Shown: one piece after another, positions 7,848 through 61,395 of the stretch | Position numbering within the stretch: position 1 is the first letter of the stretch | How the letters are laid out: every line of letters starts with the position of its first letter | The notes under the pieces: generated by a model | Databases searched by the model: none | The model's input: only the letters and a program-made list of their open reading frames with translations | Told to the model about the DNA's origin: nothing | Assembly: GCA_964606385.1 (NCBI GenBank) | Contig: CAZSFZ010000009.1 | Location: 5,762 to 69,761 of the forward strand | DNA: 64,000 nt | Reading direction: 5' to 3' | DNA from: an uncultured bacterium | Lineage (GTDB): Bacteria; Omnitrophota; Omnitrophia; Omnitrophales; Aquincolibacteriaceae | Made by a program: the position numbers and the translations under genes

Positions 7848-10800
7848 ATGTCCCAACATCATCATTCCGATATCATCAGCGGGATCGTCAGTTATTTCGC
7901 CAAATCCAAGATCACGCCGCTCATTATCGCGGTGTCGATCGTGCTCGGCGTTTTCGCGGTCATGAACCTGCCGCGGGAGGAAGAACCGCAGATCTCGGTG
8001 CCGATGTTCGATATTTTCGTGTCCTATCCCGGCGCGGATTCCAAAGAAGTCGAGCAACGGATCGTCACACTTGGAGAGAGAAAGCTCTGGGAGATCCCCG
8101 GCGTGGAATACGTGTACTCCACGATCGAGCCGGAAGGCGCGCTTATCATCGTGCGGTTCAAGGTCGGCGAAGACCCCGAAAAGAGCCTGATCAAGCTCTA
8201 TACCAAAGTTTATTCCAATCTCGATTTCCTGCCTCAGGGCGCGACCCAGCCTTTCATTAAAGTCCGTTCGATCGACGATGTGCCGATCCTGACGCTGACC
8301 TTCCATTCCAAGGACAAGGATCCGGTGACGCTGCGGCGCACGGTCGCCAATATCCAGAACGTCGTGAATGCCATTCCGGATGTGTCCGAGACCCACATCA
8401 CGGGCGGGCGCAAACGCCAGTTCCAGGTCTTTTTCGACGAAGAAAAGCTCAGGGCCCGTCTTTTGAACCCTCTCGAGATCGCGCAGATCATCCGTTCGGC
8501 GAACGTGAAACAGGCCGCCGGTCATCTGGAAAGATCGCCGGAACTTGAATCGGTGGAAGCGAATTCGTTTTTCCGAACGAAGTCCGACCTTGAAAACCTC
8601 GTGGTCGGCGTCAGCGCCGGAAGCGTTGTGACCCTGAAAGACATCGCGAAGGTCGTTGACGGGCCGGACGAGGAAGAGCGGGCGGCCGGGATCTTCTTCG
8701 GACCTGCGTCGAAGGCCGCGGACAAAGGACCTTTTCAGGCGGTAACACTCTCGATCTCAAAACGCAAGGGCGCCAATGCCGCGCATCTTTCGGAAGTGAT
8801 CCTGCATGCCATCAAGGAATTGCCGGAATCAACGCTTCCAAAGGATATCGAAATGACCGTGACGCGGGACTACGGCGAGACCGCCAAAGAAAAATCCGAC
8901 GAACTGCTTTTTCATATGGCGATTGCGGTCTTCGGCGTGAGCCTTTTGATCGCCTGGTCGCTCGGGCTCCGGGAATCGGGGGTCGTGGCGATTGCGATCC
9001 CGATGACGCTCGCCTTGACGCTCGCCACCTTTTATTTTCTCGGGTTCACGCTGAACCGCATCACGCTTTTCGCGCTGATCTTTTCGATCGGTATCCTGGT
9101 CGATGACCCGATCGTGGATGTCGAGAATATCGTGCGCCACCTCCGGCTTCCCAATAACAAAGGGAAATCCATCCTGGATATTACGATCGAGGCCGTGAAT
9201 GAGGTCCGCAGCCCCTTGATCCTCGCGACGCTTACGGTGATCGCGGCGATCCTGCCGATGGCTTTTGTGAGCGGGCTCATGGGGCCTTACATGCGGCCGA
9301 TCCCGATCGGGGCGAGCGCGGCGATGATGTTCTCGATGTTCGTGGCTTTTGTCGCGACCCCCTGGGCCGCGTATCAGATCCTGGGGAAAGCCTTCGCGCA
9401 AGGGAAACTCAAGGCACACCATGAAGGGGAAAAGGAAGATTTTCTTACGCGTCTTTACCGCTCGTACATGAACCCGCTGATCTTTAATCCCAAGGTCCGT
9501 AAATTTTTTCTGATCGGACTGGGCGGCGCCTTGATCCTCGCGATGGCCCTCGTGCCGCTCAAATTGGTCCGGATGAAGATGCTGCCCTTTGATAACAAGA
9601 ACGAGTTCCAGGTTATCCTCAATATGCCGGACGGCGCTTCGCTTGAAGCGACGCAAAAAGCGATCACCGAGATCGCGGATTATCTCGTGACGGTCCCCGA
9701 GGTGAAGGATATCGAGATGTATGTGGGGTCTGCCGCGCCTTACAACTTTAACGGGCTGGTTCGGCATTATTTCCTCCGTTCGAAGCCGCATCAGGCCGAC
9801 CTTCAGGTGAATCTTGCCGGGAAACATGACCGCAAACGGCAAAGCCACGACATTGCTAAAGCGGTGCGTCCGAAGATCCATGAGATCGTGGAAAAATACA
9901 AAGGTCATGTCCAGGTGGCGGAGGTCCCGCCAGGTCCGCCGGTCCTTTCAACCCTCGTGCTTGAGATCTACGGCCCCACGCTCGCCGGACAGCAAGAGCT
10001 TGCCAAGCAGATCGAAGGCCTGCTGGCCTCGGCGGAAGGCGTGACCGATATCGATACCTATGTCCGGGAGCCCGAGAAACTCGCGCGGCTGAGGGTCAAT
10101 ACGGAAAAGGCGTCGCTGAACGGCATTCCCGTGGATCAGATCGCCACGGCCATCACGGCCGCCGTAGGCGGGAAGACCGTGGACCTCGCGCACTTGTCGG
10201 AGGAATACGAACCCGTGGAGATCCTCCTGAGGCTGCCGAAAGAAAAACGCGCCGGGCTTGATAGTGTGCTCAATATGACGCTTCTGTCGCGTTACGGTAA
10301 TCCGATCCCGGTCCGCGAACTGGTCCATGTCGAGAAGGACCGGAAGGACCTTGCGATCTATCACAAGAACCTGATGCGCGTTTCCTATGTGATCGCGGAC
10401 GTGGCGGGGAAATACGAAAGCCCGGCGTACGCGATCCTGAAACTGAAAAAAGAGATCGCGCAGATCCCGGCGCCGGAAAATCATGAAGGACAAAGAACGG
10501 TCGACCAGATCTTTAACGGCCAGCCCAAAACGGCGGACCGCTGGACCTTGAAATGGGACGGGGAATGGCAGATCACGTACGAAGTGTTCCGGGACCTCGG
10601 GATCGCGTTCGCGTTCGTCCTGCTCCTGATCTACGCGCTCGTGGTCGGCTGGTTCCAGTCGTTCAAGACGCCCTGGATCATCATGCTGCCGATCCCGCTC
10701 ACGTTGATCGGGATCCTGCCGGCCCATTGGCTCGGCGGTGTTTTCTTCACGGCGACTTCCATGATCGGCATGATCGCCGGCGCGGGGATCGTGGTGCGGA

Positions 10801-11087
10801 ATTCGATCATCCTGGTGGATTTTATCGAACTGCGTCGCGCCGAGGGCATGCCCCTCGAGGAAGCCGTGATCGACGCGGGCGCGAAGCGTTTCAGGCCGAT
10901 GCTTCTGACGGCCGCGGCGGTCGTGGTCGGGGCTTCGGTGATCCTCTTCGATCCGATCTTTCAGGGATTGGCCGTGGCGCTGATGGCGGGCGAGATCGCT
11001 TCGACGATCCTGTCGCGCACGGCAGTGCCGGTTTTCTATTACATGATGGCTAAAAAAGAAAAAATCTCGGGGAACGTGGAACGTTGA
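7848..11087 (+). CDS. RND-superfamily efflux permease (AcrB/CzcA-type)
   Basis: 1079 aa with 12-TM/2-loop architecture. 'GILVDDPIVDVENIVRH' motif. The C-terminal 6 aa (SGNVER) are encoded by a GGAACG heptamer repeat. Confidence 0.85.
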   Translation: MSQHHHSDIISGIVSYFAKSKITPLIIAVSIVLGVFAVMNLPREEEPQISVPMFDIFVSYPGADSKEVEQRIVTLGERKLWEIPGVEYVYSTIEPEGALIIVRFKVGEDPEKSLIKLYTKVYSNLDFLPQGATQPFIKVRSIDDVPILTLTFHSKDKDPVTLRRTVANIQNVVNAIPDVSETHITGGRKRQFQVFFDEEKLRARLLNPLEIAQIIRSANVKQAAGHLERSPELESVEANSFFRTKSDLENLVVGVSAGSVVTLKDIAKVVDGPDEEERAAGIFFGPASKAADKGPFQAVTLSISKRKGANAAHLSEVILHAIKELPESTLPKDIEMTVTRDYGETAKEKSDELLFHMAIAVFGVSLLIAWSLGLRESGVVAIAIPMTLALTLATFYFLGFTLNRITLFALIFSIGILVDDPIVDVENIVRHLRLPNNKGKSILDITIEAVNEVRSPLILATLTVIAAILPMAFVSGLMGPYMRPIPIGASAAMMFSMFVAFVATPWAAYQILGKAFAQGKLKAHHEGEKEDFLTRLYRSYMNPLIFNPKVRKFFLIGLGGALILAMALVPLKLVRMKMLPFDNKNEFQVILNMPDGASLEATQKAITEIADYLVTVPEVKDIEMYVGSAAPYNFNGLVRHYFLRSKPHQADLQVNLAGKHDRKRQSHDIAKAVRPKIHEIVEKYKGHVQVAEVPPGPPVLSTLVLEIYGPTLAGQQELAKQIEGLLASAEGVTDIDTYVREPEKLARLRVNTEKASLNGIPVDQIATAITAAVGGKTVDLAHLSEEYEPVEILLRLPKEKRAGLDSVLNMTLLSRYGNPIPVRELVHVEKDRKDLAIYHKNLMRVSYVIADVAGKYESPAYAILKLKKEIAQIPAPENHEGQRTVDQIFNGQPKTADRWTLKWDGEWQITYEVFRDLGIAFAFVLLLIYALVVGWFQSFKTPWIIMLPIPLTLIGILPAHWLGGVFFTATSMIGMIAGAGIVVRNSIILVDFIELRRAEGMPLEEAVIDAGAKRFRPMLLTAAAVVVGASVILFDPIFQGLAVALMAGEIASTILSRTAVPVFYYMMAKKEKISGNVER

Positions 11088-11131
11088 ACGAAAAAGCATT
11101 TACGTTCACCGTTTCCCGTTAGCCGTTCTCC
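11069..11131. repeat. GGAACGN/NCGTTCC heptamer-array palindromic element (copy A)
   Basis: ggggaacgtggaacgttgaacg ... cgttcaccgtttcccgttagccgttctcc. Overlaps the RND stop codon. Confidence 0.6.
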
Positions 11132-11153
11132 GAGTTCTCAAAGGAGAGCTTCT

Positions 11154-11363
11154 ATGACCATAGAAAAATCGATCCCTATCATGGCCGGGTCTTTTATCCT
11201 GATCAGCCTTGCGTTGGCGGTCTGGGTGAACAAGTGGTGGCTTCTCTGGACGGCCTTTGTCGGCGTGAACCTGGTCCAGTCCGCGATCACGGGGTGGTGC
11301 CCCGCGGAAGGCCTTCTTAAAAAACTCGGCATGAAAAACTGTTGCCCCAGCCCTGAGAAATAA
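11154..11363 (+). CDS. DUF2892 (YgaP-like) small membrane protein
   Basis: 69 aa, 2 TM, conserved 'GWCPAEGLLKKLG' (GxCP motif). Confidence 0.6.
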   Translation: MTIEKSIPIMAGSFILISLALAVWVNKWWLLWTAFVGVNLVQSAITGWCPAEGLLKKLGMKNCCPSPEK

Positions 11364-11393
11364 TCGCATCACGCCATTTCCTAGGAGGTGTTT

Positions 11394-12041
11394 ATGAAAA
11401 TGATCCGTTCCTTTGCGTGTTTGGTGGTTTCTTTCATGATCATGGCCGCGTGCGTGATGGCTCCTGCGGTTTTGGCGGCGACGAGTACGGAAGGAAAGAA
11501 AAGCCTTCTCGCGCTCGGCAGCGAAGCGCCTGATTTCGCACTGCCGGATGTGGTGACCGGGGAGCTTGTGAGCCGGGACGATTTCAAGGACGCGGACGCG
11601 CTCCTCGTCGTGATCCTTTGCCGGCATTGCCCGTACGTGAAACACATCCGTCCCGATCTTGTGAAGTTCGGCAAGGATTACGCGGGCAAGAGCCTCGCGA
11701 TCGTCGGGATCAGCGCGAACGATCCGGTCGCTTACCCGGAGGACGGCCCGGAAAGCCTCAAGGAAATGGCCGTAAGCGAAGGTTTCACATTTCCCATCCT
11801 TTTTGACGGGACCCAGGAGGTCGCGAAGGCCTACACGGCGGTCGCTACGCCGGATTTTCTTCTCTTTGACAAGGACCGAAAACTTGTTTACCGGGGCCAG
11901 TATGATGACGCCCGGCCGGGGAGCAAGACACCCGTCACCGGCAAGGACCTTCGCGCTGCGGTGGACGCGGTGCTTGCGGGGGAGCCCGTCCCTGCAGACC
12001 AGCAACACGCGATCGGCTGTTCCGTTAAATGGAAAAAATAG
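11394..12041 (+). CDS. Periplasmic thioredoxin-like thiol:disulfide oxidoreductase (TlpA/redoxin family)
   Basis: Signal peptide. 'CRHCPYVKH' has a CxxC-like spacing. AGGAGG RBS lies 6 nt before the ATG at 11394. Confidence 0.65.
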   Translation: MKMIRSFACLVVSFMIMAACVMAPAVLAATSTEGKKSLLALGSEAPDFALPDVVTGELVSRDDFKDADALLVVILCRHCPYVKHIRPDLVKFGKDYAGKSLAIVGISANDPVAYPEDGPESLKEMAVSEGFTFPILFDGTQEVAKAYTAVATPDFLLFDKDRKLVYRGQYDDARPGSKTPVTGKDLRAAVDAVLAGEPVPADQQHAIGCSVKWKK

Positions 12042-12895
12042 AAAAACTGGGCCGAGAACACAAGGCGCACCTTCACGCGCGCCTCAAGCGCGTCGGTTCC
12101 GCGCTTTCCGAATACAGTTTTGCCAACCTTTATCTTTTCCGCGATACCCATGATTATCATGTGGTCAACGTTCCGGAGGGGGTCTTTATCCGGGGCAAGG
12201 CCTATGACGGCAGCTCTTTTCTCATGCCAACGGAAGAGATCAAAAAAGAAAACGCCCCTTCGATTCTTAAGCTCCTGAAGAACTCAGAATATCTTTTTCC
12301 GGTCCCGGAAGCCTGGCTTCCCGCGTTCGAGGGGCAGAATGTTTCGGCGGAGTTCTCGGAAGACGATTCGGATTACGTTTACACAGCCGAAAAACTTTCG
12401 ACTTACAAAGGACAAAAACTTCATGGGCAGAAAAATCTCCTGAACCAGTTCCTCGCGCGCTACGTGCCCGAGGCCAAGCCGCTGACGCGGGATCGGATGG
12501 ACGACGCGCGGGAGGTCCTTGAGACGTGGCAGACGGATGTGGGGGAGGAAAAGGCGGCGACGGATTATTTTCCGTGCCGGGAAGCCTTGGATCTCTATGA
12601 TGAACTCATCCTTTGCGGCGGCATTTATTACGTCGAAGGGGAGCCGGGCGGGTTCGTGATCGGCGAGGAGGTCCGCCCCGACATGTTCGCGCTTCATTTC
12701 GCGAAGGGCAAACGGAAATTCAAAGGGCTTTACCAGTACATGTATAATCACTTCGCGAAGATCCTCCCGAAACAGTACGCCTTTCTCAATTTCGAGCAGG
12801 ATCTGGGCAAGCTCGCCCTCCGGATCGCGAAATCCTCCTACGACCCCGACCGGAGCCTCAAAAAATACCGCGTCCGTCCTGGCATCCTTGTCTAA
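12029..12895 (+). CDS. DUF2156-like protein (MprF C-terminal GNAT-like fold), candidate
   Basis: 288 aa cytoplasmic protein. The pattern is reminiscent of the standalone DUF2156 family, but the assignment is from memory only. Confidence 0.35.
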   Translation: MEKIEKLGREHKAHLHARLKRVGSALSEYSFANLYLFRDTHDYHVVNVPEGVFIRGKAYDGSSFLMPTEEIKKENAPSILKLLKNSEYLFPVPEAWLPAFEGQNVSAEFSEDDSDYVYTAEKLSTYKGQKLHGQKNLLNQFLARYVPEAKPLTRDRMDDAREVLETWQTDVGEEKAATDYFPCREALDLYDELILCGGIYYVEGEPGGFVIGEEVRPDMFALHFAKGKRKFKGLYQYMYNHFAKILPKQYAFLNFEQDLGKLALRIAKSSYDPDRSLKKYRVRPGILV

Positions 12896-13017
12896 GATCT
12901 CTGGGCGGTAGACAAGGACGGCCCCAATTTCAGGAAATCTGAAATTAATAGGTATTGGGACCGTTTGACACCCTCTTCACATTCGGGCAGAATGTCCCCT
13001 CAACCCAGAGGGATTTC

Positions 13018-13302
13018 ATGGAATTCAATATTGATAAGGTCGCGGAACTTGCGCGGCTGAACCTCAAGACAGAAGAAAAATCCAAACTCGGGAAAGACCT
13101 CGGAGCGATCCTCGATTACGTCAAGAAGCTCGAGAAACTGGAAACCCGGAATATCGAGCCGACGAGCCATGTCCTGGACCTCGAGAACGTCTACCGGAAA
13201 GACGAGGTCAAACCCTCGGATGCAGCCGACAAGGCCCTGGCGCACGCCCCGCACGCCGACGGCCGTTTCTTCAAAGTTCCCAAGATCGTGCAGAGGGACT
13301 GA
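13018..13302 (+). CDS. gatC: Glu-tRNA(Gln)/Asp-tRNA(Asn) amidotransferase subunit C
   Basis: 'MEFNIDKVAELARLNL...EEK' matches the GatC N-terminus. The ORF-track 5' extension is rejected. Confidence 0.8.
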   Translation: MEFNIDKVAELARLNLKTEEKSKLGKDLGAILDYVKKLEKLETRNIEPTSHVLDLENVYRKDEVKPSDAADKALAHAPHADGRFFKVPKIVQRD

Positions 13303-13303
13303 T

Positions 13304-14752
13304 ATGGCCGATCTTTGCTCCCTGACTCTCAAAGAAGCGATTGACGTCGCGAAAAAAGACGGTGCGCAGCCGATCCTGGATGCTTTCGCGAAGCGCGCCG
13401 AGGCGCTTAATCCGACGATAAACGCGTTCCTTCGTTTTGAGCAACCCATCCGACCCCGGGGGTCGGATAAATCCGACCCCGGGGGTCGGATGGGGGAGGG
13501 GGCGCTTCACGGGGTGCCCATTTCGATCAAGGATAATATCTGCATGGAAGGCAAGGAAGTGACATGCGCGTCGAAGATCCTGGCCAAGCACGTGCCGCCG
13601 TATAACGCGACGGTCATCACCAAATTGAAAGATGCGGGCGCGACGCTTTTCGGCCAGTGCAACATGGACGAATTCGCGTTCGGTTCCTCGTGCGAAACCT
13701 CGGCCTTCGGGCCGTGTAAAAATCCCTGGGACCTGACGCGCGTGCCCGGCGGCTCTTCCGGCGGCTCCGCGGCCTCGGTTGCGGCGGACATGACACTTGC
13801 CGCGCTCGGGAGCGATACCGGCGGCTCCATCCGTCAGCCCGCCGCGCTTTGCGGCGTGGTCGGCGTGAAACCCACTTACGGACGCGTGTCGCGCTACGGC
13901 CTTATCGCGTTCGGTTCGAGTTTTGACCAGATCGGCCCCATCACAAAGACCGTAGAAGACGCGGCGATCCTGATGAATGTGCTGAGCGGCCATGACCCGA
14001 AAGATTCTACCTCCGCGCCGCAGAATGTCCCTGATTTCACGCAAGCGCTCAAGCGGGACGTCAAAGGCCTGAAGATCGGTCTGCCGAAGGAATATTTTAT
14101 CGAAGGCATCGACCCCGAGATCGAAAAAAGCGTGCGCGCGGCAGCGGACCTTTATAGGAAACTCGGCGCGGAGATCAAGACGATCTCTCTGCCTCATACC
14201 GAATACTCCGTCGCGGTCTACTATATTGTCGCCGTCGCGGAGGCAAGCTCGAACCTCGGCCGGTTCGACGGCGTAGAGTACGGCCTGCGTGTACCCACCA
14301 AAGATCTTCGCGAGATGTATTTTGAGACACGCGACCAGGGGTTCGGACAGGAGGCCAAGCGCCGCATCCTGCTCGGCACTTTTGTGCTTTCCGCGGGTTA
14401 TTATGAAGCTTACTACTTAAAGGGGCAGAAGGTCCGCACGCTCATCCGCCAGGATTTCGAGAAGGTGTTTAAAGAAGTGGATGTGATCCTTTCGCCGACC
14501 TCGCCTACACCAGCCTTCAAGATCGGCGAAAAGGCCGCGGACCCGATCGCCATGTACTTATCTGATATTTTTACAATCCCGGCGAACCTTGCAGGGATCC
14601 CCGCGATGTCCGTGCCGTGCGGTTTTACCTCAGGCGGTCTGCCCATCGGCATGCAGCTCATGGCCCGCCCGTTCGACGAGGCGACCATGCTCCGTGCTGC
14701 TTATGCGTTTGAACAAGAGGCTGGAATCCACAAAAAGAAACCGGTTCTTTAG
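13304..14752 (+). CDS. gatA: Glu-tRNA(Gln) amidotransferase subunit A
   Basis: Amidase signature 'GGSSGGSAASVAA', 'HGVPISIKDNI'. ATG at 13304 is 1 nt after the gatC stop. Confidence 0.9.
   Translation: MADLCSLTLKEAIDVAKKDGAQPILDAFAKRAEALNPTINAFLRFEQPIRPRGSDKSDPGGRMGEGALHGVPISIKDNICMEGKEVTCASKILAKHVPPYNATVITKLKDAGATLFGQCNMDEFAFGSSCETSAFGPCKNPWDLTRVPGGSSGGSAASVAADMTLAALGSDTGGSIRQPAALCGVVGVKPTYGRVSRYGLIAFGSSFDQIGPITKTVEDAAILMNVLSGHDPKDSTSAPQNVPDFTQALKRDVKGLKIGLPKEYFIEGIDPEIEKSVRAAADLYRKLGAEIKTISLPHTEYSVAVYYIVAVAEASSNLGRFDGVEYGLRVPTKDLREMYFETRDQGFGQEAKRRILLGTFVLSAGYYEAYYLKGQKVRTLIRQDFEKVFKEVDVILSPTSPTPAFKIGEKAADPIAMYLSDIFTIPANLAGIPAMSVPCGFTSGGLPIGMQLMARPFDEATMLRAAYAFEQEAGIHKKKPVL
13448..13491. 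repeat. Tandem copy of a 21-nt perfect palindrome inside the gatA coding region
   Basis: atccgaccccgggggtcggat-aa-atccgaccccgggggtcggat. It is read in-frame as 'IRPRGSDKSDPGGRM'. Confidence 0.6.
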
Positions 14753-14761
14753 GAGGTTGTT

Positions 14762-14992
14762 ATGGCGAAGACGAAGATGCCGTTCGTGATGGACATGCAG
14801 CCAGGGGAATATTACTGGTGTTCCTGCGGGGAATCCGCGAAGCAGCCGTTCTGCGACGGGTCGCATAAGACGAAGGCGCCCGGCATGCAGCCCATGAAGA
14901 CAGTGATCGATGCGTCGAAAAAGATCGCGTGGTGCGGCTGCAAAGCTTCGGGGAAGAAACCCTTTTGCGACGGGACGCATACAAAACTTTAA
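14762..14992 (+). CDS. CDGSH iron-sulfur domain protein (two CDGSH motifs)
   Basis: 'CSCGESAKQPFCDGSH' and 'CGCKASGKKPFCDGTH'. Confidence 0.8.
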   Translation: MAKTKMPFVMDMQPGEYYWCSCGESAKQPFCDGSHKTKAPGMQPMKTVIDASKKIAWCGCKASGKKPFCDGTHTKL

Positions 14993-15034
14993 ATGGTGAC
15001 GGTTATCTGTTTTTTATAGTACAGCAATAGGAGC

Positions 15035-15544
15035 ATGCGAGTGAGCCGATTTACGTCGAAAAGCATAAGGGCTCTTTTTGAAGCAAATAAAAAACAAGCT
15101 CAAAGGAAACTGAGGAGCCTTAAAGTTTGCTGCACCGACGAGCCCGATTTCGCGGGGCTCAATGGGTGGGTATTCGAACAGACGATTCAGTATTGTATTC
15201 GACAAGAACTCTTGTCCCAAGGGGTTCGTCCCAGGATTGAAGAGCAGTTTAACTTGGGCGGTCGAGCAAGAGCAGATTTGAAGATTGGTGGAAACATCGC
15301 TATCGAGATCAAAGTGGCTGGTCTTTTCAGCGAAGACGATATCTTAAAATATAAAAAATACCGTCAAATGGCAGAGCAACAAGGCTTTCGCTATCTGTTT
15401 TTGTCATGGGAGGAAAGTCATCTTCCCTTCCGGAAGGGGATTGCACGAGTTTTGGATGCAGCCAATGTCTTTTATCTTGATCGTTCACAAGACTGGAAAA
15501 GATTCATCAATGGATTGGTTGAGTTTCTCAAGAAAACCGCGTAG
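15035..15544 (+). CDS. Hypothetical protein with a PD-(D/E)xK-like nuclease motif; low-GC (~45%) insertion between gatA and gatB
   Basis: 'RADLKIGGNIAIEIKV' fits the D...(E/Q)xK core. GC is well below the neighbours. No homologous context in the conserved gatCAB operon. Confidence 0.4.
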   Translation: MRVSRFTSKSIRALFEANKKQAQRKLRSLKVCCTDEPDFAGLNGWVFEQTIQYCIRQELLSQGVRPRIEEQFNLGGRARADLKIGGNIAIEIKVAGLFSEDDILKYKKYRQMAEQQGFRYLFLSWEESHLPFRKGIARVLDAANVFYLDRSQDWKRFINGLVEFLKKTA

Positions 15545-15588
15545 AAATCGGATGATACCGTTCGGAGAAGGAATGAGAAAGAATAATT

Positions 15589-17040
15589 ATGAAATTTGAA
15601 CCAGTCATCGGACTAGAAGTCCACGTGCAATTAAAAACAAAGTCAAAACTGTTCTGCTCGTGCTCGACGGAATTTGGGGCGGAGGGGAATAGCCACACAT
15701 GTCCCGTGTGCCTCGGCTGGCCGGGGTCGCTTCCGGTGGTGAATGAGACGGCGCTGAAGCTCGGGATCAAGGCTGGGCTCGCGCTCAACTGTAAAGTGGC
15801 GGAGCGCCTCAAGTTCGACCGGAAGAATTATTTCTATCCGGACCTTCCCAAGGCTTATCAGATCTCCCAGTACGATATGCCGGTGAATGGGAAGGGGTTT
15901 GTTGATGTTGAAACGAAAAGCGGGGAACGTGGAACGGGGAACGTGGAACGAAAGCGAATCGGGATCACGCGCGCACATTTGGAAGAAGATGCGGGAAAAC
16001 TTCTGCATGAAGGGATCTCGGACGGAAGCTTGGTCGATTACAACCGTGGCGGCGTGCCGCTCCTTGAGATCGTTTCTGAACCGGATATCCGCTCGCCCCA
16101 GGAAGCGTACGATTACCTTAGCGCGCTCAAAGCGATCTTGCAATACGTAGAAGTGAGCGACTGTGATATGGAAAAGGGAAGCCTCCGCTGCGACGCGAAC
16201 GTATCCGTACGGCCGGTCGGTCAGGAGAAATTCGGGACGAAAGTTGAGATCAAGAACCTGAACTCGTTCAAGATGGTGCAGAAAGCCATTCAGTACGAGA
16301 TCGAACGCCAGACGCGGGCGCTCGAGGACGGTGAAACGATCGTTCAGGAAACGCGGCTCTGGAATGACGCCAAGGGCACGACGTTCTCCATGCGTTCCAA
16401 AGAGGAAGCCCACGATTACCGTTATTTTCCGGACCCGGACCTTGTAGCGTTCACGCTTTCCAGAGAACTCGTGGACGGGATCAGGAAGACCCTGCCGGAA
16501 TTGCCGCTCGAGCGCGCGAAGCGGTTCATGAAAGATTACGGCCTTTCCGAATACGACGCTTATGTGCTGGTGCAGGAAAAGAAACTCGCGGAATATTTCG
16601 AGTCCTGCGTGCGCGAGGGCGCCGCGGCAAAGCTCGCGAGCAACTGGATCCAGAATGAACTTCTCGCGTTATTAAATGAGAAGAATATCGCGATCGAAAC
16701 ATGCCTTGTTTCTCCCCATGCGCTGGCCGGGTTGATCCGTCTTGTCGAGCAGGGGACGGTGAGCGGCAAGACTGCCAAGGATGTGCTTCAGGAAATGGCG
16801 GCCACGGGCAAAGCGGCCGACGTGATCGTCAAAGAAAAAGGTCTGACGCAAGTTTCGGATACCGGTCTGATCGAGAAAACGGTTGAGAAAGCGATCGCGG
16901 CGAATCCCACGGCGGTCGCGGAATTCAAAGCTGGGAAACAAAAAGCCTTGGGTGCGCTTGTAGGTTTCGTCATGAAAGAGACCGGAGGCAAGGCGAATCC
17001 GAAGCTTGTGAATGAAATACTCATTCAAAAGCTCGGCTAA
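15589..17040 (+). CDS. gatB: Glu-tRNA(Gln)/Asp-tRNA(Asn) amidotransferase subunit B
   Basis: 'MKFEPVIGLEVHVQL', 'KRIGITRAHLEEDAGK'. Contains an in-frame heptamer-repeat insertion at 15922-15950. Confidence 0.9.
   Translation: MKFEPVIGLEVHVQLKTKSKLFCSCSTEFGAEGNSHTCPVCLGWPGSLPVVNETALKLGIKAGLALNCKVAERLKFDRKNYFYPDLPKAYQISQYDMPVNGKGFVDVETKSGERGTGNVERKRIGITRAHLEEDAGKLLHEGISDGSLVDYNRGGVPLLEIVSEPDIRSPQEAYDYLSALKAILQYVEVSDCDMEKGSLRCDANVSVRPVGQEKFGTKVEIKNLNSFKMVQKAIQYEIERQTRALEDGETIVQETRLWNDAKGTTFSMRSKEEAHDYRYFPDPDLVAFTLSRELVDGIRKTLPELPLERAKRFMKDYGLSEYDAYVLVQEKKLAEYFESCVREGAAAKLASNWIQNELLALLNEKNIAIETCLVSPHALAGLIRLVEQGTVSGKTAKDVLQEMAATGKAADVIVKEKGLTQVSDTGLIEKTVEKAIAANPTAVAEFKAGKQKALGALVGFVMKETGGKANPKLVNEILIQKLG
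15922..15950. repeat. GGAACG heptamer array (4 units) embedded in-frame in gatB
   Basis: ggggaacgtggaacggggaacgtggaacg, read as 'GERGTGNVER'. Its 15-mer ggggaacgtggaacg is identical to copy A at the RND 3' end. Confidence 0.65.
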
Positions 17041-17125
17041 CGTGGAACGGCAAACGATGAACGCAAAAAAGAAAAATAATAAGCGTTTTCGTTCCCCGTT
17101 CCCCGTTCCCCGTTCCCCGTTTTTT
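17038..17125. repeat. GGAACGN/NCGTTCC heptamer-array palindromic element (copy C) with (CGTTCCC)x4 and a terminal T-run
   Basis: cgtggaacggcaaacgatgaacgc-A-rich loop-cgttttcgttccccgttccccgttccccgttccccgtttttt. Overlaps the gatB stop and the tsaD 5' end. Confidence 0.6.
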
Positions 17126-18124
17126 ACCCTCGGCATAGAAACATCGTGTGATGAAACCTCCTGTTCCGTTCTTAAGGATAAAGACACGATCCTTTCCAAT
17201 GTTGTTTCCTCGAGCCTTTTCCGGCACAAAAAATTCGGCGGTGTGGTGCCCGAGATCGCCTCGCGGCATTGCATGGAACAGATCCAGTGTGTTTTTGAGG
17301 AAGCACTTCGACAGGCTCAGTGCAAGGCGCGGGATTTGGATTTAATAGCGGTGACGCAGGGGCCGGGGCTCATCGGTTCGCTCCTCGTCGGCGTGTCGTT
17401 TGCCAAGGCGCTGGCTTATCAACTAGGCATCCCAATTGTTGGCGTCAATCATATGGAAGCGCACCTCGTGGCGAACTTCTTTGGCCAGCCGGAACCCAAG
17501 CGATATATCGGCCTGCTCGTGTCGGGCGGTCACACCATGCTGACGTTCTGTGAAAAAGGGAAGATCCATATTTTTGGCGAAACCGTGGATGACGCAGTTG
17601 GCGAGGCCTATGACAAAGTCGCTAAGATCATGGGCCTCAGTTATCCCGGAGGCCCCATCATCGACAAGTTCGCGAAGGAAGGAAATTCGCGGGCGTTCCA
17701 ATTCACAAAGCCGAAGCAGGACGACCGGTTCAGTTTCAGCTTCAGCGGCGTCAAGACCGCGGTGCTGTACCAATTCCACGACCCTAAAACGGGAAAGCCG
17801 AATCCCCAGGCGCCTTCTGTGAAAGATATGGCGGCGAGTTTTCAGCACGCGGTGATCGGGTGGCTTGTCGAAAAAGCGCTTGATGCCTGTGAATTTAAAC
17901 ACGCGGCTGATATCGTGGTCGGCGGCGGCGTCAGCGCAAATTCTTATTTGCGGGAAAAACTCACGCGCGAAGCGGCGGCGCAGGGGATCAAGGTCTGGTT
18001 CCCGCCGTTCGTCTTAAGCACGGACAACGCGGCGATGATCGCGCGGCGGGGATTTGAGCTTTACCAACAGGGAAAACGGTCGAAACTTAATATGACCGGA
18101 GATCCGGCACTACAAATAAAATAA
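17057..18124 (+). CDS. tsaD: tRNA N6-adenosine threonylcarbamoyltransferase
   Basis: 'LGIETSCDETSCSV', 'HMEAHL'. The only in-frame ATG (17057) puts 22 repeat-encoded residues (RFRSPFPVPRSPFF) before the conserved core, so the start is uncertain. Confidence 0.75.
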   Translation: MNAKKKNNKRFRSPFPVPRSPFFTLGIETSCDETSCSVLKDKDTILSNVVSSSLFRHKKFGGVVPEIASRHCMEQIQCVFEEALRQAQCKARDLDLIAVTQGPGLIGSLLVGVSFAKALAYQLGIPIVGVNHMEAHLVANFFGQPEPKRYIGLLVSGGHTMLTFCEKGKIHIFGETVDDAVGEAYDKVAKIMGLSYPGGPIIDKFAKEGNSRAFQFTKPKQDDRFSFSFSGVKTAVLYQFHDPKTGKPNPQAPSVKDMAASFQHAVIGWLVEKALDACEFKHAADIVVGGGVSANSYLREKLTREAAAQGIKVWFPPFVLSTDNAAMIARRGFELYQQGKRSKLNMTGDPALQIK

Positions 18125-18214
18125 GTATCAGCATGTCAGAGTATCAAAGTGTCACAACACAGAGCCTGATACTCTGACACCTTGACACTGTGACACGCAT
18201 TTAGGGGAGGTCTT

Positions 18215-19637: not shown

Positions 19638-19736
19638 ATGCCTTGGGCTCGTAAACAGCGCAAGAAGAAGATGAACAAGCATAAGCGCAAGAAAAAACTG
19701 CGCCGGAACCGTCACAAGAAAAAAGACTGGTCCTAG
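19638..19736 (+). CDS. bS22-like (AURKAIP1/COX24-domain) small basic ribosomal protein, 32 aa
   Basis: MPWARKQRKKKMNKHKRKKKLRRNRHKKKDWS matches the 'KRRKRMxKKKHRKLLRRTR' pattern of bS22. AAAGGAG RBS 8 nt upstream. A terminator follows immediately. Confidence 0.5.
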   Translation: MPWARKQRKKKMNKHKRKKKLRRNRHKKKDWS

Positions 19737-19737
19737 C

Positions 19738-19761
19738 AAAATGCCGCTTTCGCGGCATTTT
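19738..19761 (+). terminator. Rho-independent terminator after the bS22-like ORF
   Basis: aaaatgccgc-tttc-gcggcatttt: perfect 10-bp stem (6 G/C base pairs plus A/T flanks) and a T-run. Confidence 0.6.
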
Positions 19762-19763
19762 GC

Positions 19764-19831
19764 GTGAAACGGGGAACGGTAAGCGGGAAACGCAATGTTT
19801 GGCGTTCCCCGTTGATCGTTTCCCGTTTTTT
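19764..19831. repeat. GGAACGN/NCGTTCC heptamer-array palindromic element (copy D)
   Basis: gtgaaacggggaacggtaagcgggaaacgc-aatgtttgg-cgttccccgttgatcgtttcccgtttttt. Confidence 0.55.
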
Positions 19832-21103: not shown

Positions 21104-21174
21104 TGCCCCGTGGTGAAATGGTATCACACTGCCCTTTGGAGGCAAGGTTCCTGGTTCGAGCCCAGGCGGGGCAG
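21104..21174 (+). tRNA. tRNA-Gln (anticodon UUG)
   Basis: Hand-folded cloverleaf. 7-bp acceptor tgccccg/cggggca with U1:A72 and discriminator G73 (GlnRS identity elements). D-stem gtga/tcac. Anticodon loop ctTTGga. T-arm cctgg-ttcgagc-ccagg. CCA is not encoded. Confidence 0.7.
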
Positions 21175-44997: not shown

Positions 44998-47900
44998 ATG
45001 CCAAAACGCAACGACATTAATAAGATCCTGATCATCGGATCGGGGCCGATCATTATCGGCCAGGCCTGCGAGTTCGATTATTCCGGGACCCAGGCTTGTA
45101 AAGCGCTCCGCAAAGAAGGGTACGAGATCGTGCTCGTCAATTCCAATCCCGCGACGATCATGACGGATCCGGAAATGGCGGACCAGACCTATATCGAACC
45201 ATTGACCCTGGAGAGCCTTGAGAAGATCATTGCCAAGGAACGGCCGGACGCGCTTCTTCCCAATCTGGGCGGTCAGACGGGGCTCAATCTCTCTTCTGCG
45301 CTTTATAAAAACGGCATTCTCGAAAAATACGGCGTTCAGATCATCGGGGTGAAGGCGGACGCCATCGAACGGGGTGAGGACCGTGAGGTTTTCAAGGCCA
45401 CCATGGCCCAGCTCGGGATCCCGGTGCCTCAATCGGCGACGGCCAATACCGTCGAAGAATGCGAAGCGATCGCCCAGAAGATCGGTTACCCGGTCGTGAT
45501 CCGTCCCGCGTATACAATGGGCGGAACGGGCGGCGGGATCGCCTATAACGTGGAAGACCTGCGGGTGATCGCGCTCCGGGGGCTTACGGTGAGTATTGCC
45601 CGCCAGGTGCTGATCGAAGAAGCAGTGATCGGATGGGAAGAGCTGGAACTCGAGGTCGTCCGCGACGCGAAGAACCAGAAGATCACGGTATGTTTTATCG
45701 AGAACGTGGACGCGATGGGCGTGCACACCGGGGACAGTTTTTGCGTGGCGCCGATGCTCACGGTCGCGCCCGAGCTCCAGAAAAAGCTCCAGGAATATTC
45801 TTATAAGATCGTCGACGCGATCGGTGTGGTCGGAGGCACGAACATCCAGTTCGCGCACAATAAAAAAGACGGCCGCGTGGTGGTGATCGAGATCAATCCG
45901 CGCACGTCCCGTTCGTCCGCGCTCGCTTCGAAAGCGACGGGGTTTCCGATCGCGATGGTGTCAACGCGTCTTGCGGCCGGTCTCACGATGGATGAGATCC
46001 CTTACTGGCGGGATGGGTCGCTTGAGAAATACACGCCGAGCGGGGAGTACGTGGTCGTGAAATTCGCCCGTTGGGCGTTTGAAAAGTTCCCCAAGGCCCA
46101 GGATGTTTTGGGAACGCAGATGAAAGCTGTCGGCGAGGTCATGTCCATCGGCAAGAATTTCAAGGAGGCTTTTCAGAAGGCCATCCGGTCTCTCGAGATC
46201 GGCCGCTACGGCCTCGGTGGGGCCAAAGATTTCAAGCAGCTGACCGTCGAACAGCTCCGGGGTCGCCTGGCGCATGCTTCCAGCGAACGGATCTTCCTCA
46301 TGTATGAAGCCCTTCGGAAGGGTTTCTCCGTCGAAGAGCTTTACCGCATGACCCACATCGGGCTGTGGTTCATCCAGGAAATGAAGGACCTCGTGACGTT
46401 CGAGGAAGAGATTATCCAGAATCCTTGGGACAAATTCACGGACAAGGACCTCGTGAAGGCCAAGGAATGGGGTTTTTCGGACCGGTACCTTGCGGGGCTT
46501 TTCGGGGTTTCGGAGACGGCGGTGCGTGAACGCCGCATCCGCCTCGGCAAGATCGCCCGGTATGAGGCCGTTCCTGTGAGCGGCGTGGAAAACGCGGCGT
46601 ATTATTACTCCACCTATCACGTGGGTAAGGAAGATGTGGCGGTTTCCAGGAATAAAAAGATCCTGATCCTGGGCGGCGGGCCGAACCGGATCGGGCAGGG
46701 GATTGAATTCGATTACACCTGCGTGCACGCGGTGATGGCGCTCCGCGCGGCCGGTTATGAATCGATCATGATCAACTGTAACCCCGAAACGGTATCGACC
46801 GACTACGATACGGCGAACAAGCTTTATTTTGAGCCCCTGACGGTGGAGGACGTTCTGACGATCTATGAAAAAGAAAAACCGGACGGCGTGATCGTCCAGT
46901 TCGGCGGACAAACGCCTCTCAATATCGCCAGGCAGCTTAAAGACGCGGGTGTGAAGATCCTGGGGACCACCCCGGAAAGCATCGCGTTCGCGGAAGACCG
47001 CGAACTTTTCCGCGAAAAAATGATCGAGCTCGGCATCCCGCAGCCCGAAAGCGGCATCGCGCGTTCGTTGGAAGAGGCGCTTGGGATCGCGGAGCGGATC
47101 GGCTATCCCCTCATGGTCCGTCCTTCTTTCGTGCTCGGCGGCCGCGGCATGGAGATCATTTACGATGAGGCCATGCTGAGAAAATACGCGGTGGAAGCCA
47201 TCAAGGTGAGCCCGGAGCATCCGATGCTGATCGACCGGTTCCTGGATAAGGCGCTTGAATGCGAAGTGGACGCCCTTTCCGACGGGACCGACGCTTTTGT
47301 CACGACGGTCATGGAACACATTGAATGGGCCGGGGTGCATTCGGGGGATTCGGCCTGCTCCATCCCGAGCCGGACGATCTCCAAAGAGCATCTGAAGCAG
47401 ATCGAGGACTACACGGCCAAGATCGCCAAGGCGCTCAGCGTCGTGGGCCTCATCAATGTCCAATACGCGATCTGCGACGGTAAGGTCTATATCCTGGAAG
47501 CGAACCCCCGCGCCTCGCGCACGGTGCCGATCGTTTCCAAAGTGACGGGAGTTCCGATCGCGCGCATCGCGACCGAAATGATGCTCGGCAAAAAGATCGG
47601 TGATTTCCCGCAGCTCAAGAATGTCAAAGCGCGGTTTTTCGGCGTGAAAGAAGCCGTGTTCCCCTTCAACATGTTCCCCGAAGTCGATCCGATCCTGGGT
47701 CCCGAAATGCGGGCGACGGGAGAAGTGATGGGGGTGGGGGATAATTTCGGCGCGGCGTTCTACAAGGCGCAGGAAGCCACGGGCGCGAAGCTTCCGCTGG
47801 AAGGGAATGCTCTTTTAACGGTGGCGGGTAAGGACAAGGAGATGCTGCCGCCTATCGCGAAAAAACTGATCTCGCTCGGTTTCAAGATCTTCGCGACGGA

Positions 47901-51200: not shown

Positions 51201-51543
51201 TTTCCACCGGCTTGGTTTCAAGGTCGTTTCGACCAAAGGCACCGCGCAGGTCCTGAGGGATTACCGGGTTCCCGTCCAGGAGATCCTGAAGATCACCGAG
51301 GGAAGCCCCCACATCGGGGACTGGGTCAAAACCAAGAAGATGGATCTCATTATCAACACGCCGAGCGGCAAGGGCCCCATGCTGGACGAGGGCAAGATCC
51401 GTTCACTCGCGGTCTCTTTCAATATTCCCTGCATCACGACCTTGAGCGCCGCGCGCGCCGCGATCCGGGGACTTCAGGCTGTCAAGGACGATGACCTGGA
51501 TGTGCGGTCGATCCAGGATTATCAGGGGATGAATAGCAAATAA
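48253..51543 (+). CDS. carB: Carbamoyl-phosphate synthase large subunit, copy 2 (diverged paralog)
   Basis: Full length, 1096 aa. Both ATP-grasp halves and the MGS domain are intact. Roughly 60% identity to copy 1 by eye. Confidence 0.9.
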
Positions 51544-56440: not shown

Positions 56441-56566
56441 TAAATTCGAAATACGAAGCGCGAAATCCGAAACAAAATTTAAACCCGAATTTCTTAATGT
56501 CTCAAGCGTTTTAAATTTTGGTAATTCGAATTTGTTTCGAGTTTCGGATTTAGGATTTCGGATTTT
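56441..56566. repeat. AT-rich ~125-bp quasi-palindromic element built of CGAAAT/ATTTCG heptamer-like units
   Basis: Left arm ttcgaaatacgaagcgcgaaatccgaaacaaaattt. Right arm aaattcgaatttgtttcgagtttcggatttaggatttcggatttt. Lies between lpxB start and the upstream gene end. Confidence 0.5.
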
Positions 56567-57567: not shown

Positions 57568-57688
57568 CCGAAATCCTTCATATCACAATAGTTATCGGGA
57601 AGAAAAATAACGCTCAAGGAGCTTAAATCATAACCTTGAGCAGTGTCAACGGATATGTTACAGTGTGGGCCCTTGCTTTCCAAGGGCC

Positions 57689-57745
57689 CGGGAAACGGAG
57701 AACGTCGAACGTCATCGTTTCCCGTTCCCCATTTACTGTTCCCCG
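57689..57745. repeat. GGAACGN/NCGTTCC heptamer-array palindromic element (copy E)
   Basis: ggaaacggagaacgtcgaacg-tcat-cgtttcccgttccccatttactgttcccc. Preceded by the hairpin gggccctt-gctttcc-aagggccc. Confidence 0.55.
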
Positions 57746-60748: not shown

Positions 60749-60752
60749 AAAA

Positions 60753-61347: not shown

Positions 61348-61395
61348 CGGGGAACGATTCGTTTGCCGTTTTCCATGACCCGTTCCCCGGTTTTT
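61348..61395. repeat. GGAACGN/NCGTTCC heptamer-array palindromic element (copy F, short left arm)
   Basis: cggggaacg-att-cgtttgccgttttccatgacccgttcccc-ggttttt. Confidence 0.5.

Follow-up and report, generated by a model that had tools for sequence, protein, structure and literature searches.

Palindromic heptanucleotide arrays at gene junctions of an uncultured Omnitrophota bacterium: a further example of paired heptamer repeats

The junction between gatB and tsaD in an uncultured Omnitrophota bacterium is occupied by a palindrome built of tandem 7-nt units, which raises the question of what kind of element this is and whether it represents a new family. Within the window, the whole 64-kb stretch of DNA that was analysed, four clear palindromes of the form (GGAACGN)n-loop-(NCGTTCC)n are present (E1, E3, E4 and E5; Table 1). 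In each, a single 7-nt unit is repeated in tandem in two short arrays, which stand in inverted orientation with the G-rich arm first and are separated by an A/T-rich, non-conserved loop; most of the elements lie in tight junctions between co-directional genes. These elements are interpreted here, with a probability of about 0.55, as hairpin-forming heptanucleotide simple-sequence repeats maintained by slippage, the Omnitrophota counterpart of the convergent heptamer-array pairs of Xanthomonas. They are neither REP/BIME elements nor MITEs; their kind is already described in bacteria, and the GGAACGN set is a further example of it. The palindromic heptamers recognised in an earlier, sequence-only reading of this DNA are real, but their novelty was overstated. 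The more interesting aspect, judging from the junctions compared, appears to be that relatives keep a palindrome in place, yet with different units.

Table 1. Heptamer elements and associated features in the window (E1 to E8; a point in the strand column means that no strand is assigned)
Feature	Position	Strand	Context
E1, GGAACGN palindrome	11066..11134	.	between ACR_tran gene and ygaP-like gene
E2, direct array of 6 heptamers, no inverted partner	15910..15951	+	in frame inside gatB
E3, GGAACGN palindrome (locus of the sequence-only reading)	17041..17125	.	gatB stop to conserved TsaD N-terminus
In-frame ATG in E3 left arm	17057..17059	+	position fits start of 355-aa NCBI TsaD protein P0001 (MNAKKKNNKRFRSPFPVPRSPFFTLGIETSCDE)
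E7, palindrome AGTATCA / TGTCAC ... TGATACT CTGACAC CTTGACA	18124..18200	.	tsaD stop to mgtC
Conventional GC hairpin, GCAAAATGCCGC TTTC GCGGCATTTTGC	19736..19763	+	3' of 32-aa basic ORF, directly upstream of E4
E4, GGAACGN palindrome, then T-run	19764..19831	.	upstream of ispE (19872)
E8, AT-rich heptamer palindrome	56442..56565	.	between GFO_IDH_MocA gene and lpxB, both minus strand
GC hairpin, GGGCCCTTG CTTTC CAAGGGCCC	57667..57689	.	adjoins E5, divergent intergenic region
E5, GGAACGN palindrome	57689..57745	.	upstream of msbA-like ABC transporter gene (ATG 57759)
E6, weak degenerate GGAACGN palindrome, then T-run	61348..61395	.	upstream of homoserine dehydrogenase gene

The left arm of E1 (11071-11091) reads GGAACGT GGAACGT TGAACGA and is followed by the loop AAAAGCATTTA and a right arm at 11103-11130 (MFE -29.4, z -3.9). 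E3 begins directly after the gatB stop codon (17038-17040), and its left arm GGAACGG CAAACGA TGAACGC is separated by an A-rich loop from a right arm of (CGTTCCC)x4, read as (GGGGAAC)x4 on the minus strand; its fold has a z-score of -5.0. The arms of E4 are GAAACGG GGAACGG TAAGCGG GAAACGC and GCGTTCC CCGTTGA TCGTTTC CCGTTTT, and the fold, which includes the adjoining GC hairpin, reaches z -8.7. E5 (GAAACGG AGAACGT CGAACGT / CGTTTCC CGTTCCC ..., z -3.9) ends 6 nt before the Shine-Dalgarno sequence GGGAGGA of the msbA-like gene. The sequence-only reading had counted six copies in 64 kb, and its two remaining members are of a different quality: E6, with the sequence GGGGAACG ATT CGTTTGC CGTTTTC CATGACC CGTTCCCC, is weak, and the copy placed at 15922-15950, part of E2, has no complementary arm. 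The predicted RNA folds agree with this division, since the four main loci have z-scores from -3.9 to -8.7, but the fold of E6 is not significant (z -1.7, equalled by 14 of 200 shuffles) and E2 gives no signal (z -0.85). The 42 nt of E2 comprise the units GAAACGA AAAGCGG GGAACGT GGAACGG GGAACGT GGAACGA.

Two heptamer palindromes with other units, E7 and E8, had been overlooked. E7 uses the units GTATCA/TGTCAC with a period of 7-8 and stands directly before a Shine-Dalgarno sequence without a T-run; E8 has the structure (AAATNCG)x4-5, a 54-nt spacer and (TTTCGGA)x4. The window carries several unrelated units, namely GGAACG, GTATCA/TGTCAC and AATCCGA. An ungapped inverted-repeat finder detected E7 and E8 and missed the GGAACGN elements because these contain a mismatch at each N.

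The 7-nt periodicity is borne out as the defining feature, as a unit-agnostic scan of the window found strict tandem arrays at lag 7 only, with none at lags 4-6 or 8-12. The sequence GGAACGNGGAACG, with at most one mismatch, has 11 matches in the window against 0.99 expected, a count reached in none of 100 shuffles, and the pattern AACGNNRAACG-N(3-33)-CGTTYNNCGTTY matches 13 times, at four loci, with 0 expected. In every pair of the window the G-rich arm comes first, and the palindromic pattern with the opposite arm order (C-arm first) has no match there. By hand count from the unit lists, the AACG core recurs at 7-nt spacing in 36 of 41 units, and the window contains tandem arrays of at least two heptamers with a conserved core and heterogeneous positions. 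The N position agrees between arms in 23 of 30 cases against 9.9 expected, a comparison confounded by genome-specific units. CRISPR was ruled out, as the units are 7 nt long and there are no spacers. No element in the window matched an Rfam covariance model, the sole match being a tRNA-Gln at 21104-21174, and folding of sense versus antisense RNA, as a test of RNA-level selection, revealed no consistent G-U asymmetry.

The gene map confirms the placement of the elements at gene ends and starts. Of the eight, six occupy junctions of co-directional genes and one a divergent spacer; E6 was counted apart because the ORF upstream of it has no Pfam match and may be spurious. About 7 of the 31 spacers of at least 40 nt in the window are occupied. 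The exceptions to non-coding placement are E2, which lies within gatB, and E1 and E3, which overlap coding ends. The elements run into coding sequence where the frame can be kept: E2 lies in the part of gatB that encodes a variable surface loop (SGERGTGNVER), the left arm of E1 encodes the C-terminus of the ACR_tran protein together with its stop codon (...KISGNVER*, stop 11085-11087), and E3 forms an N-terminal extension of TsaD. The tsaD frame is open throughout E3, as it is in all five genomes that carry the element, and relative to the empty site the E3 inserts measure 69, 57, 93, 57 and 63 nt, each divisible by 3. Besides the ATG in the left arm, a second in-frame tsaD ATG at 17012, within the 3' end of gatB, is conserved in relatives. 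The predicted TsaD N-terminus reads MNAKKKNNKRFRSPFPVPRSPFF.... Among the 78 listed TsaD relatives, most of those with the conserved motif carry variable K/R/S/P-rich N-terminal extensions, readable as translated arms. Heptamer arrays in frame occur in two essential genes, gatB and tsaD. The elements also distort gene calls, as the variable TsaD starts illustrate, and break assemblies: Logan contig L001 begins 37 nt before E1 and stops about 160 nt after E3.

This coding overlap bears on the possibility that the elements serve as intrinsic terminators or attenuators of transcription, possibly in both directions, and that the heptamer composition of their stems is incidental. Such a role would agree with the stable predicted hairpins, the G-rich 5' and C-rich 3' arms, the position downstream of stop codons and the T-runs 3' of E3, E4 and E6. 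The T-run of E3 (17120-17125), however, belongs to the TsaD codons CCG TTT TTT (Pro-Phe-Phe), which are conserved as PFY in a relative that has no element, and the whole of E3 lies within the open tsaD frame. E1 and E7 have no T-run and stand between tightly linked co-directional genes, just upstream of a Shine-Dalgarno sequence, while E4 already has a conserved conventional hairpin upstream, which is kept in the related genome L204 with compensatory changes. At the E4 orthologous sites of L125 and L126 T-runs are absent, E5 occupies a divergent promoter region, and a scan of the window for consensus terminators and promoters flagged none of the elements. The elements are not consistently terminators, and this reading is improbable. 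The statement that they usually end in a T-run is correspondingly weakened: a run follows three of five palindromes, but that of E3 is translated and the runs are not conserved at orthologous sites. A separate GC hairpin, said to precede the elements often, is found at two loci (E4 and E5) and not at the others; the one adjoining E5 lies in a divergent spacer and therefore, under the present annotation, does not terminate the upstream gene.

Orthologous junctions in relatives (L122-L126, L202 and L204) provide the most direct view of how the elements change. At the sites of E1, E2, E3, E4 and E7 the heptamer architecture is retained, with variation in unit sequence as well as in unit number. 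In L202, which ranks as the nearest relative in each of the genes compared (84-95% amino acid identity), both E1 and E3 have changed from GGAACG to GGATG. The two differ as whole elements, loops included, and the change looks like replacement rather than gradual drift. In the gatB loop of the same genome, a new (GGGACAC)x4 array stands beside a remnant of the GGAACG array. In the more distant L204, the four sites compared (E1-E4) all retain GGAACG units with similar A/T-rich loops, and the gatB array is (GGGGAAC)x4. Families also recur across genomes at different sites: the GGGACTC/GGGACAC family is found at E3 of L124 and at E2 of L126 and L202, and the TTCGGAG family at E1 of L124, at E3 of L123 and L125, and at E7 of L125. 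L124 and L125 each carry two or three unrelated units, and on the TsaD tree the unit families are intermingled. Empty sites occur as well, at E1 in L125, where the genes overlap as ATGA, and at E3 in L122.

These observations give some weight to another explanation, namely that the palindromes represent non-autonomous mobile elements of very small size, either REPIN/MITE-like or hairpin-homing, which insert at or replace junction hairpins in competition between families and depend on an enzyme encoded elsewhere in the genome. One unit family occupies several dispersed junctions of a single genome, E1 and E3 are entirely replaced in L202, arms and loop, while L204 retains the ancestral elements, and filled and empty sites, shared families, the mixed gatB loop and the intermingled tree all point in the same direction. 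Against this, no termini are conserved outside the repeat unit, and comparison of E1 and E3 with the empty sites of L125 and L122, respectively, revealed no target-site duplication. A candidate duplication at E3, CTCGGC on both sides, proved to be gatB and tsaD coding sequence. Same-family copies at different loci have unrelated loops and thus lack a master-copy signature; the combination of terminal inverted repeats, target-site duplication and shared internal sequence by which MITEs are recognised is not present. No transposase, RAYT or reverse transcriptase was found among the approximately 55 ORFs scanned in the 64-kb window. The GTAG/CGTC tag that defines REP at the end of a 20-40 nt palindrome is likewise missing, the ends being CTCGGGG, TAACGTGG, GCGTGAAACGG and CCCGGGAAACGG; together with the internal periodicity of the arms, this upholds the earlier statement that the elements are not classic REP/BIME. 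In addition, the excess of period 7 spans hundreds of unrelated units in many phyla, which is easier to reconcile with a general mutational process than with many separate transposons. Mobility of this kind is accordingly regarded as unlikely, though not negligible. Family switching at fixed junctions lends some support to the suggestion of a mini mobile element, but the identical 15-mers that had been taken as a sign of recent spread do not: the shared 15/16-mer CGGGGAACGTGGAACG (11068-11083 and 15921-15936) is real, but as it is just two units plus CGG, it is a weak indicator.

A bolder form of the same idea, which seems rather unlikely, would treat palindromic heptamer arrays in Omnitrophota, and perhaps widely, as very small self-propagating hairpin elements whose competing families home to tight junctions and permissive coding loops, where one whole element would supplant another within short evolutionary times. 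If true, this would imply an unrecognised copying or "writing" mechanism, by hairpin-targeted template switching or an enzyme, and could account for the surplus of 7-nt repeats that has long been noted in prokaryotes.

In the favoured interpretation as slippage-maintained repeats, slipped-strand mispairing in a 7-nt register would cause the arrays to grow, shrink and homogenise, and the complementarity of the arms may be kept by fold-back or template-switch copying, or by selection on the hairpin. In-situ slippage cannot place one unit at five or six unrelated loci, and it cannot switch E1 and E3 jointly from GGAACG to GGATG in L202. Slippage alone is therefore insufficient and transfer between loci is needed, which might occur through ectopic template switching, gene conversion or true mobility. 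Once transcribed, the hairpin would probably behave like an intercistronic REP, stabilising or uncoupling neighbouring cistrons, and would be unlikely to act as a dedicated terminator or operator.

The heptamers are not confined to this lineage. GGAACGN arrays of at least three units were detected in more than 120 contigs, which belong to Gemmatimonadota, Rhodanobacteraceae and other Xanthomonadales, Verrucomicrobiota, Planctomycetota, Cyanobacteria, Chloroflexota and others, which speaks against lineage-specificity. Arm order in the GGAACGN pairs of other phyla is G-arm first in 30 cases and C-arm first in 5. The stop-free span hints at an intergenic trend for these pairs (68% versus 90% of positions in long stop-free frames), although high-GC genomes contain many spurious open frames. 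Among viral contigs, 24 have arrays of at least three units, just one of them paired. The 7-nt period itself is general and not bound to the GGAACGN unit: 0.92 Mb around gatB homologues contain 24 strict arrays at lag 7 against 0-4 at other lags (4-12), with very diverse units, and 0.87 Mb around GGAACGN matches contain 270 against 1-48 at other lags.

The recurrence of GGAACGN across many phyla and the AACG core in 36 of 41 units would also be compatible with arrays bound by a sequence-specific protein, each subunit of which would recognise one heptad, on DNA in the manner of omega repressor or on RNA. The omega repressor of inc18 plasmids, a ribbon-helix-helix protein, binds contiguous 7-bp heptads in direct and inverted orientation, and the contiguous units of the window, present in both orientations, resemble such operators. 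Omega operators, however, are few promoter sites with one unit sequence and a known protein, whereas the window elements occupy many chromosomal junctions, use several units and have no linked protein. For RNA, MacGregor has proposed RNA-binding proteins for heptamer repeats (PMC4679880), with CsrA, Csp and S1 as candidates for TAACTGA. Nevertheless, several unrelated units coexist per genome (in the window, L124 and L125), the unit changes freely at orthologous sites, complementarity of the arms extends to the variable position, which a binding array would not need, arrays lie within coding sequence, and no candidate gene is linked to the elements. The proposal of arrayed protein-binding half-sites is weakened by the diversity and switching of units, and this function appears quite improbable.

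Formation of G-quadruplexes, as suggested for the heptamers of Xanthomonas and Nostoc, is very improbable. The minus strand of E3, (GGGGAAC)x4, is a canonical G4N3 motif identical to the gatB array of L204, and Rehm et al. (PMC4692102) have shown that related heptamer units form quadruplexes. In the window, the G-tracts of most arms are only two G long or interrupted (GGAACGT, TGAACGA, GAAACGC), and all arms except the E3 minus strand lack four tracts of at least three G. The other families at these sites are not G-rich (GTATCA, AAATNCG, GAAGACC), and a quadruplex would face competition from the hairpin. As a common property it was rejected because G3 tracts are missing from most arms. The G-tract requirement belongs to the G-rich subclass of Rehm et al., not to heptamer repeats generally.

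Palindromes inside genes have a precedent: Rickettsia palindromic elements (RPE) were reportedly found in frame within protein genes by Ogata and colleagues in 2000. RPE share with the present elements their tolerance in frame in housekeeping genes, at permissive surface positions, but are said to be copies of 100-150 bp with a defined consensus and no arrays of 7-nt units. REP, BIME and REPIN elements (PMC3116915, PMC3733652) are similar in being abundant short intergenic palindromes between co-directional genes that are transcribed as hairpins, with several families per genome and a content that varies among relatives. Unlike them, the window elements have arms of 7-nt periodicity instead of unique sequence and are longer, at about 57-125 nt.

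Heptamer repeats are the closer comparison. Full-text literature searches for the exact repeat strings, GGAACG/CGTTCC heptamers and Omnitrophota heptamer or palindromic repeats returned nothing relevant. The family cannot be called new in kind, as heptamer repeats and convergent pairs are already documented (PMC4679880, PMC4692102). That bacteria contain heptanucleotides in excess was recognised with the cyanobacterial STRR (1990) and the genome surveys of 2007. According to Mrazek 2007, as cited in PMC4679880, heptanucleotides form the most abundant and most over-represented class of long simple repeat in the majority of prokaryotic genomes, and slippage was suggested as the cause of this general excess. 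The cyanobacterial STRR, such as Nostoc GGGGA(C/T)T (Mazel 1990, cited in PMC4692102), are, as summarised there, likewise tandem and dispersed in non-coding DNA, with several families per genome, an over-represented period of 7 and slippage as the proposed origin; according to the same summaries, cyanobacterial arrays are mostly direct, reach 26 units and include few inverted pairs, whereas short paired arrays are the rule in the window. TAACTGA repeats of Beggiatoaceae, Cyanobacteria and Bacteroidetes (MacGregor 2015, PMC4679880) also form short arrays of 2-6 copies directly upstream of start codons, in operon spacers and in some ORFs, and share one unit among distant phyla, but 169 direct sets stand against 1 indirect, and they were proposed as single-stranded RNA binding sites without hairpins.

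The nearest relatives are the GGGAATC-type arrays of Xanthomonas, of which about 70-75 pairs are convergent (inverted), intergenic and mostly of about four units, and which occupy equivalent junctions in two species but vary extensively in length and sequence (Rehm et al. 2015, PMC4692102). In both systems the 7-nt unit combines a conserved core with variable positions, GGGAATC resembling GGGAACG; both have about 2-5 units, most commonly 4, near stop and start codons; many convergent array pairs capable of a stem-loop; and junctions shared among related species with variable length and sequence. The Omnitrophota elements differ in unit and phylum, in that most arms of the window are unable to form G-quadruplexes, and in their extension in frame into coding sequence; moreover, unrelated unit families coexist in them and swap at identical junctions. 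With several junctions sampled in close relatives, this Omnitrophota lineage is a compact system for comparison, in which slippage in place can be tested against copying between loci, and the effect of the hairpin on expression can be examined, in a setting where the inverted heptamer architecture is kept while the unit is swapped.

The feature itself is real: element E3, for example, reads TAA-CGT GGAACGG CAAACGA TGAACGC, followed by an A-rich loop and GCGTTTT (CGTTCCC)x4 CG TTTTTT, and the AACG core stands in 7-nt register in 36 of 41 units counted from the unit lists. With at most one mismatch allowed, the window has 11 copies of GGAACGNGGAACG where 0.99 are expected; 0 of 100 shuffles reached 11. 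By a three-unit score, plus-strand arrays lie at 11064, 15910, 17037, 19766 and 57685, and minus-strand arrays at 11102, 17089, 19802 and 57715; one extra match (38356) is at chance level. The palindrome pattern AACGNNRAACG-N(3-33)-CGTTYNNCGTTY has 13 matches at four loci of the window, against 0 expected, and the opposite arm order has none anywhere in it. Strict tandem arrays were found at lag 7 only in a unit-agnostic scan of the window. The sequence-only reading had described six palindromic copies, which is right in part: fold prediction bears out the four main loci, which are palindromic and fold far better than shuffles (z -3.9 to -8.7); the fifth, E6, is weak (z -1.7 for 61335-61400), and the sixth, E2, is a direct array without a partner, with no fold signal in 15915-15965. 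Two palindromes, E7 and E8, had been overlooked. G-quadruplex potential is confined to the minus strand of E3.

Heptamer-repeat elements of the window, their gene context and units at the same sites in relatives (L numbers: metagenome contigs, with loci around gatB and tsaD), followed by other features
Feature	Position	Context	Unit in window	L204 or L205	L202	Other relatives
E1	11066-11134	between ACR_tran and ygaP-like gene; left arm encodes ...GNVER and stop codon	GGAACG	L204 GGAACG, loop AT-rich as in window	GGATG core	L124 TTCGGAG; in L125 site empty and genes overlapping as ATGA
E2	15910-15951	inside gatB; 14 codons of variable GatB loop	GGAACG x4-6	L204/L205 (GGAACGG)x4	(GGGACAC)x4 adjoining GGAACG remnant	L126 (GGGACTC)x4; L125, L136 with insertions of other kinds, not heptamers; none in L122, L123, L124, L127
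E3	17041-17125	between gatB stop and conserved TsaD N-terminus	GGAACG	L204/L205 GGAACG, loop nearly identical	GGATG core	L123, L125 TTCGGAG-like; L124 GGGACTC-like; L126 GCCACAA; L122, L127 without element
E7	18124-18200	between tsaD and mgtC	GTATCA/TGTCAC ... TGACAC	L204 GTAC type	GGAACG	L126 GTATCA-like; L125 TTCGGAG; none in L122, L123
E4	19764-19831	upstream of ispE; preceded by 32-aa basic ORF with conserved GC hairpin	GGAACG	L204 GGAACG	contig stops before E4	L125 GAAGACC; L126 GTACGG; L123 ambiguous
E8	56442-56565	between two minus-strand genes	(AAATNCG) ... (TTTCGGA)			
E5	57689-57745	divergent spacer, directly before Shine-Dalgarno sequence of msbA-like gene				
E6	61348-61395	upstream of homoserine dehydrogenase gene				
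Fusion gene	3503-5956	minus strand; 817 aa; pyridine nucleotide-disulphide oxidoreductase, rhodanese, TusA and DsrE-like domains; adjoins ArsR-family regulator gene				
Basic ORF	19638-19737	between hisG and ispE; 32 aa, extremely basic, MPWARKQRKKKMNKHKRKKKLRRNRHKKKDWS; no Pfam match; then a conserved GC hairpin		conserved in L204		conserved in L123, L125, L126
Paired genes	44998-48219, 48253-51543	adjacent full-length carbamoyl-phosphate synthase large-subunit genes (1073, 1096 aa), 3' of small-subunit gene				
Hairpin	60750-60782	3' of radical SAM gene; 15-bp perfect hairpin AAAAGCCGGACATCCC AGG GGATGTCCGGCTTTT, A and T runs flanking; looks like a conventional bidirectional terminator				
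ORF	60770-61291	downstream of radical SAM gene; no Pfam hit, may be spurious				

About 7 of the 31 window spacers of at least 40 nt hold an element. The window derives from an uncultured bacterium. Its gene map from Pfam scans is one of housekeeping genes, and these scans returned no transposase, RAYT or reverse transcriptase among the window genes. TsaD relatives in the database carry the name Candidatus Omnitrophica, and GatB has an exact match in a single record, a 6.3-kb Logan metagenome contig. This contig (L001, window 11027-17281), the sole other assembly of the sequence, begins 37 nt upstream of E1 and stops about 160 nt past E3; because its ends adjoin these elements, heptamer palindromes are suggested to break up short-read assemblies.

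Judged from its reading frame, E3 is predicted to be translated and not to act as a terminator. No stop codon interrupts the tsaD frame between an ATG at 17012, inside the gatB 3' end, and the far end of E3, and in L123 and L125 the ATG within gatB is the sole in-frame start codon. Compared with L122, whose site is empty, the inserts add 69, 57, 93, 57 and 63 nt; each of these lengths is divisible by 3 despite the 7-nt unit. The T-run 3' of E3 forms the codons CCG TTT TTT (Pro-Phe-Phe), and PFY stands at the corresponding TsaD position in relatives, the element-free L122 included. Of the 78 listed TsaD relatives with a recognised conserved motif, most have variable N-terminal extensions, rich in K/R/S/P and up to 59 residues long, that read as translated arms, such as RSPFPVPRSP for (CGTTCCC)n and HPPSSILHP for (GCCATCC)n. 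The database TsaD protein P0001 (355 aa) starts at the equivalent of ATG 17057, within the E3 left arm. An out-of-frame ATG within the last 29 nt of gatB (17012-17040) is conserved in six relatives (positions in L122-L126) and opens the tsaD frame, which suggests that gatB and tsaD are overlapping, translationally coupled genes; many database TsaD proteins have MKSSRKNS...-type N-termini.

Comparison of the same junctions site by site shows conservation of site and architecture among relatives and not of the unit. In each of the genes compared, L202 stands nearest to the window (84-95% aa); L204 is farther away (62-93% aa). In L202, two dispersed junctions changed family together, loops included, and unit families turn up again in different genomes at different sites. 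Unit families and apparent absences are intermingled in the TsaD tree, even between near-identical proteins, although some of these absences may merely reflect the gene caller's start placement.

Other repeats also occupy coding loops. In gatA (13445-13494), the loop after ...NAFLRFE holds the 23-nt palindrome ATCCGACCCCGGGGGTCGGAT(AA) as an in-frame tandem duplicate, and relatives carry other insertions there, such as VIPAKAGIQ...-type sequences in L204 and L125; the lineage thus tolerates several kinds of palindromic repeat within coding loops. Repeats of different classes make the GatB loop a hotspot: at the heptamer-array position, L125 (about 10330-10370) carries another palindrome, CTCACCCCAACCCTCTCCCCAGGGGAGAGG, which reads TLTPTLSPGER in translation, and L136 has a longer insertion, APHPNPLPRQIEGGQAQGEGR....

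Specificity to the lineage, raised by the sequence-only reading, is contradicted by the wider distribution of the unit, with (GGAACGN)x3 found also in many other phyla. It occurs in at least 120 contigs and more, against roughly 17 expected under the rough assumption of uniform composition over 596 Gb. Hosts among the matches listed include Gemmatimonadota, Rhodanobacteraceae, other Xanthomonadales, Verrucomicrobiota, Planctomycetota, Cyanobacteria, Chloroflexota and Longimicrobia. Paired GGAACGN arrays beyond the lineage have the G-rich arm first in 30 cases and the C-rich arm first in 5, with spacers of 14-56 nt; the arms agree at the variable position in 23 of 30 pairs (9.9 expected), a figure confounded by genome-specific units. 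Period 7 outnumbers every other period in both locus sets, around gatB homologues (24 vs 0-4) and around GGAACGN hits (270 vs 1-48), with very diverse units.

The best-supported account treats the elements as heptamer simple repeats that form hairpins. Slippage in 7-nt register would maintain the arrays, fold-back copying or selection on the hairpin would keep the arms complementary, and tight junctions between genes and permissive sites within coding sequence would tolerate the elements, whose effect on mRNA, if any, would probably be REP-like. Sense and antisense RNA folds showed no consistent asymmetry that would separate a role at the RNA level from one at the DNA level. Slippage explains neither the presence of one unit at several loci of a genome nor the joint replacement of whole elements by another family in L202. 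Information transfer between loci is therefore needed; ectopic template switching, gene conversion and true mobility are the candidate routes. This transfer is the sole part of the finding that could prove new, and family switching is an evolutionary behaviour unexplained by slippage yet testable.

Known repeat classes were compared. REP sequences carry a GTAG/CGTC tag; the window elements lack it, are too long and have internally periodic arms, and so fall outside the REP definition. They also fall outside the MITE definition, with no internal sequence common to the copies and no target-site duplication seen against the empty sites. An Rfam search gave no match for the elements. Judged from E3 in the tsaD frame, from orthologous sites, where T-runs are not conserved, and from a consensus scan that flagged none of them, the elements do not consistently look like terminators. 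Summaries in PMC4679880 and PMC4692102 credit Mrazek et al. 2007 with the finding that heptanucleotides are the most abundant long simple repeats and with the proposal of polymerase slippage with a 7-nt contact as the cause. Xanthomonas has about 185 GGGAATC-type arrays per genome, mostly of four units and intergenic (Rehm et al. 2015, PMC4692102), and 70-75 of them are paired in convergent orientation. In two species, the same neighbouring genes flank these arrays, which vary extensively; PMC4692102 assigns them no function. TAACTGA arrays are common to distant phyla, some within ORFs (MacGregor 2015, PMC4679880); a distant gatB-relative locus, L148 (1328-1385), has (GATTACT)n directly adjoining (CTCCCCA)n, and a single mismatch separates the former unit from TAACTGA as found in Beggiatoaceae and Cyanobacteria. 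Given the heptamer repeats reported by Mrazek, Rehm and MacGregor, the earlier claim of novelty was overstated: the window elements belong to a described kind of repeat, in which the unit and the phylum are new.
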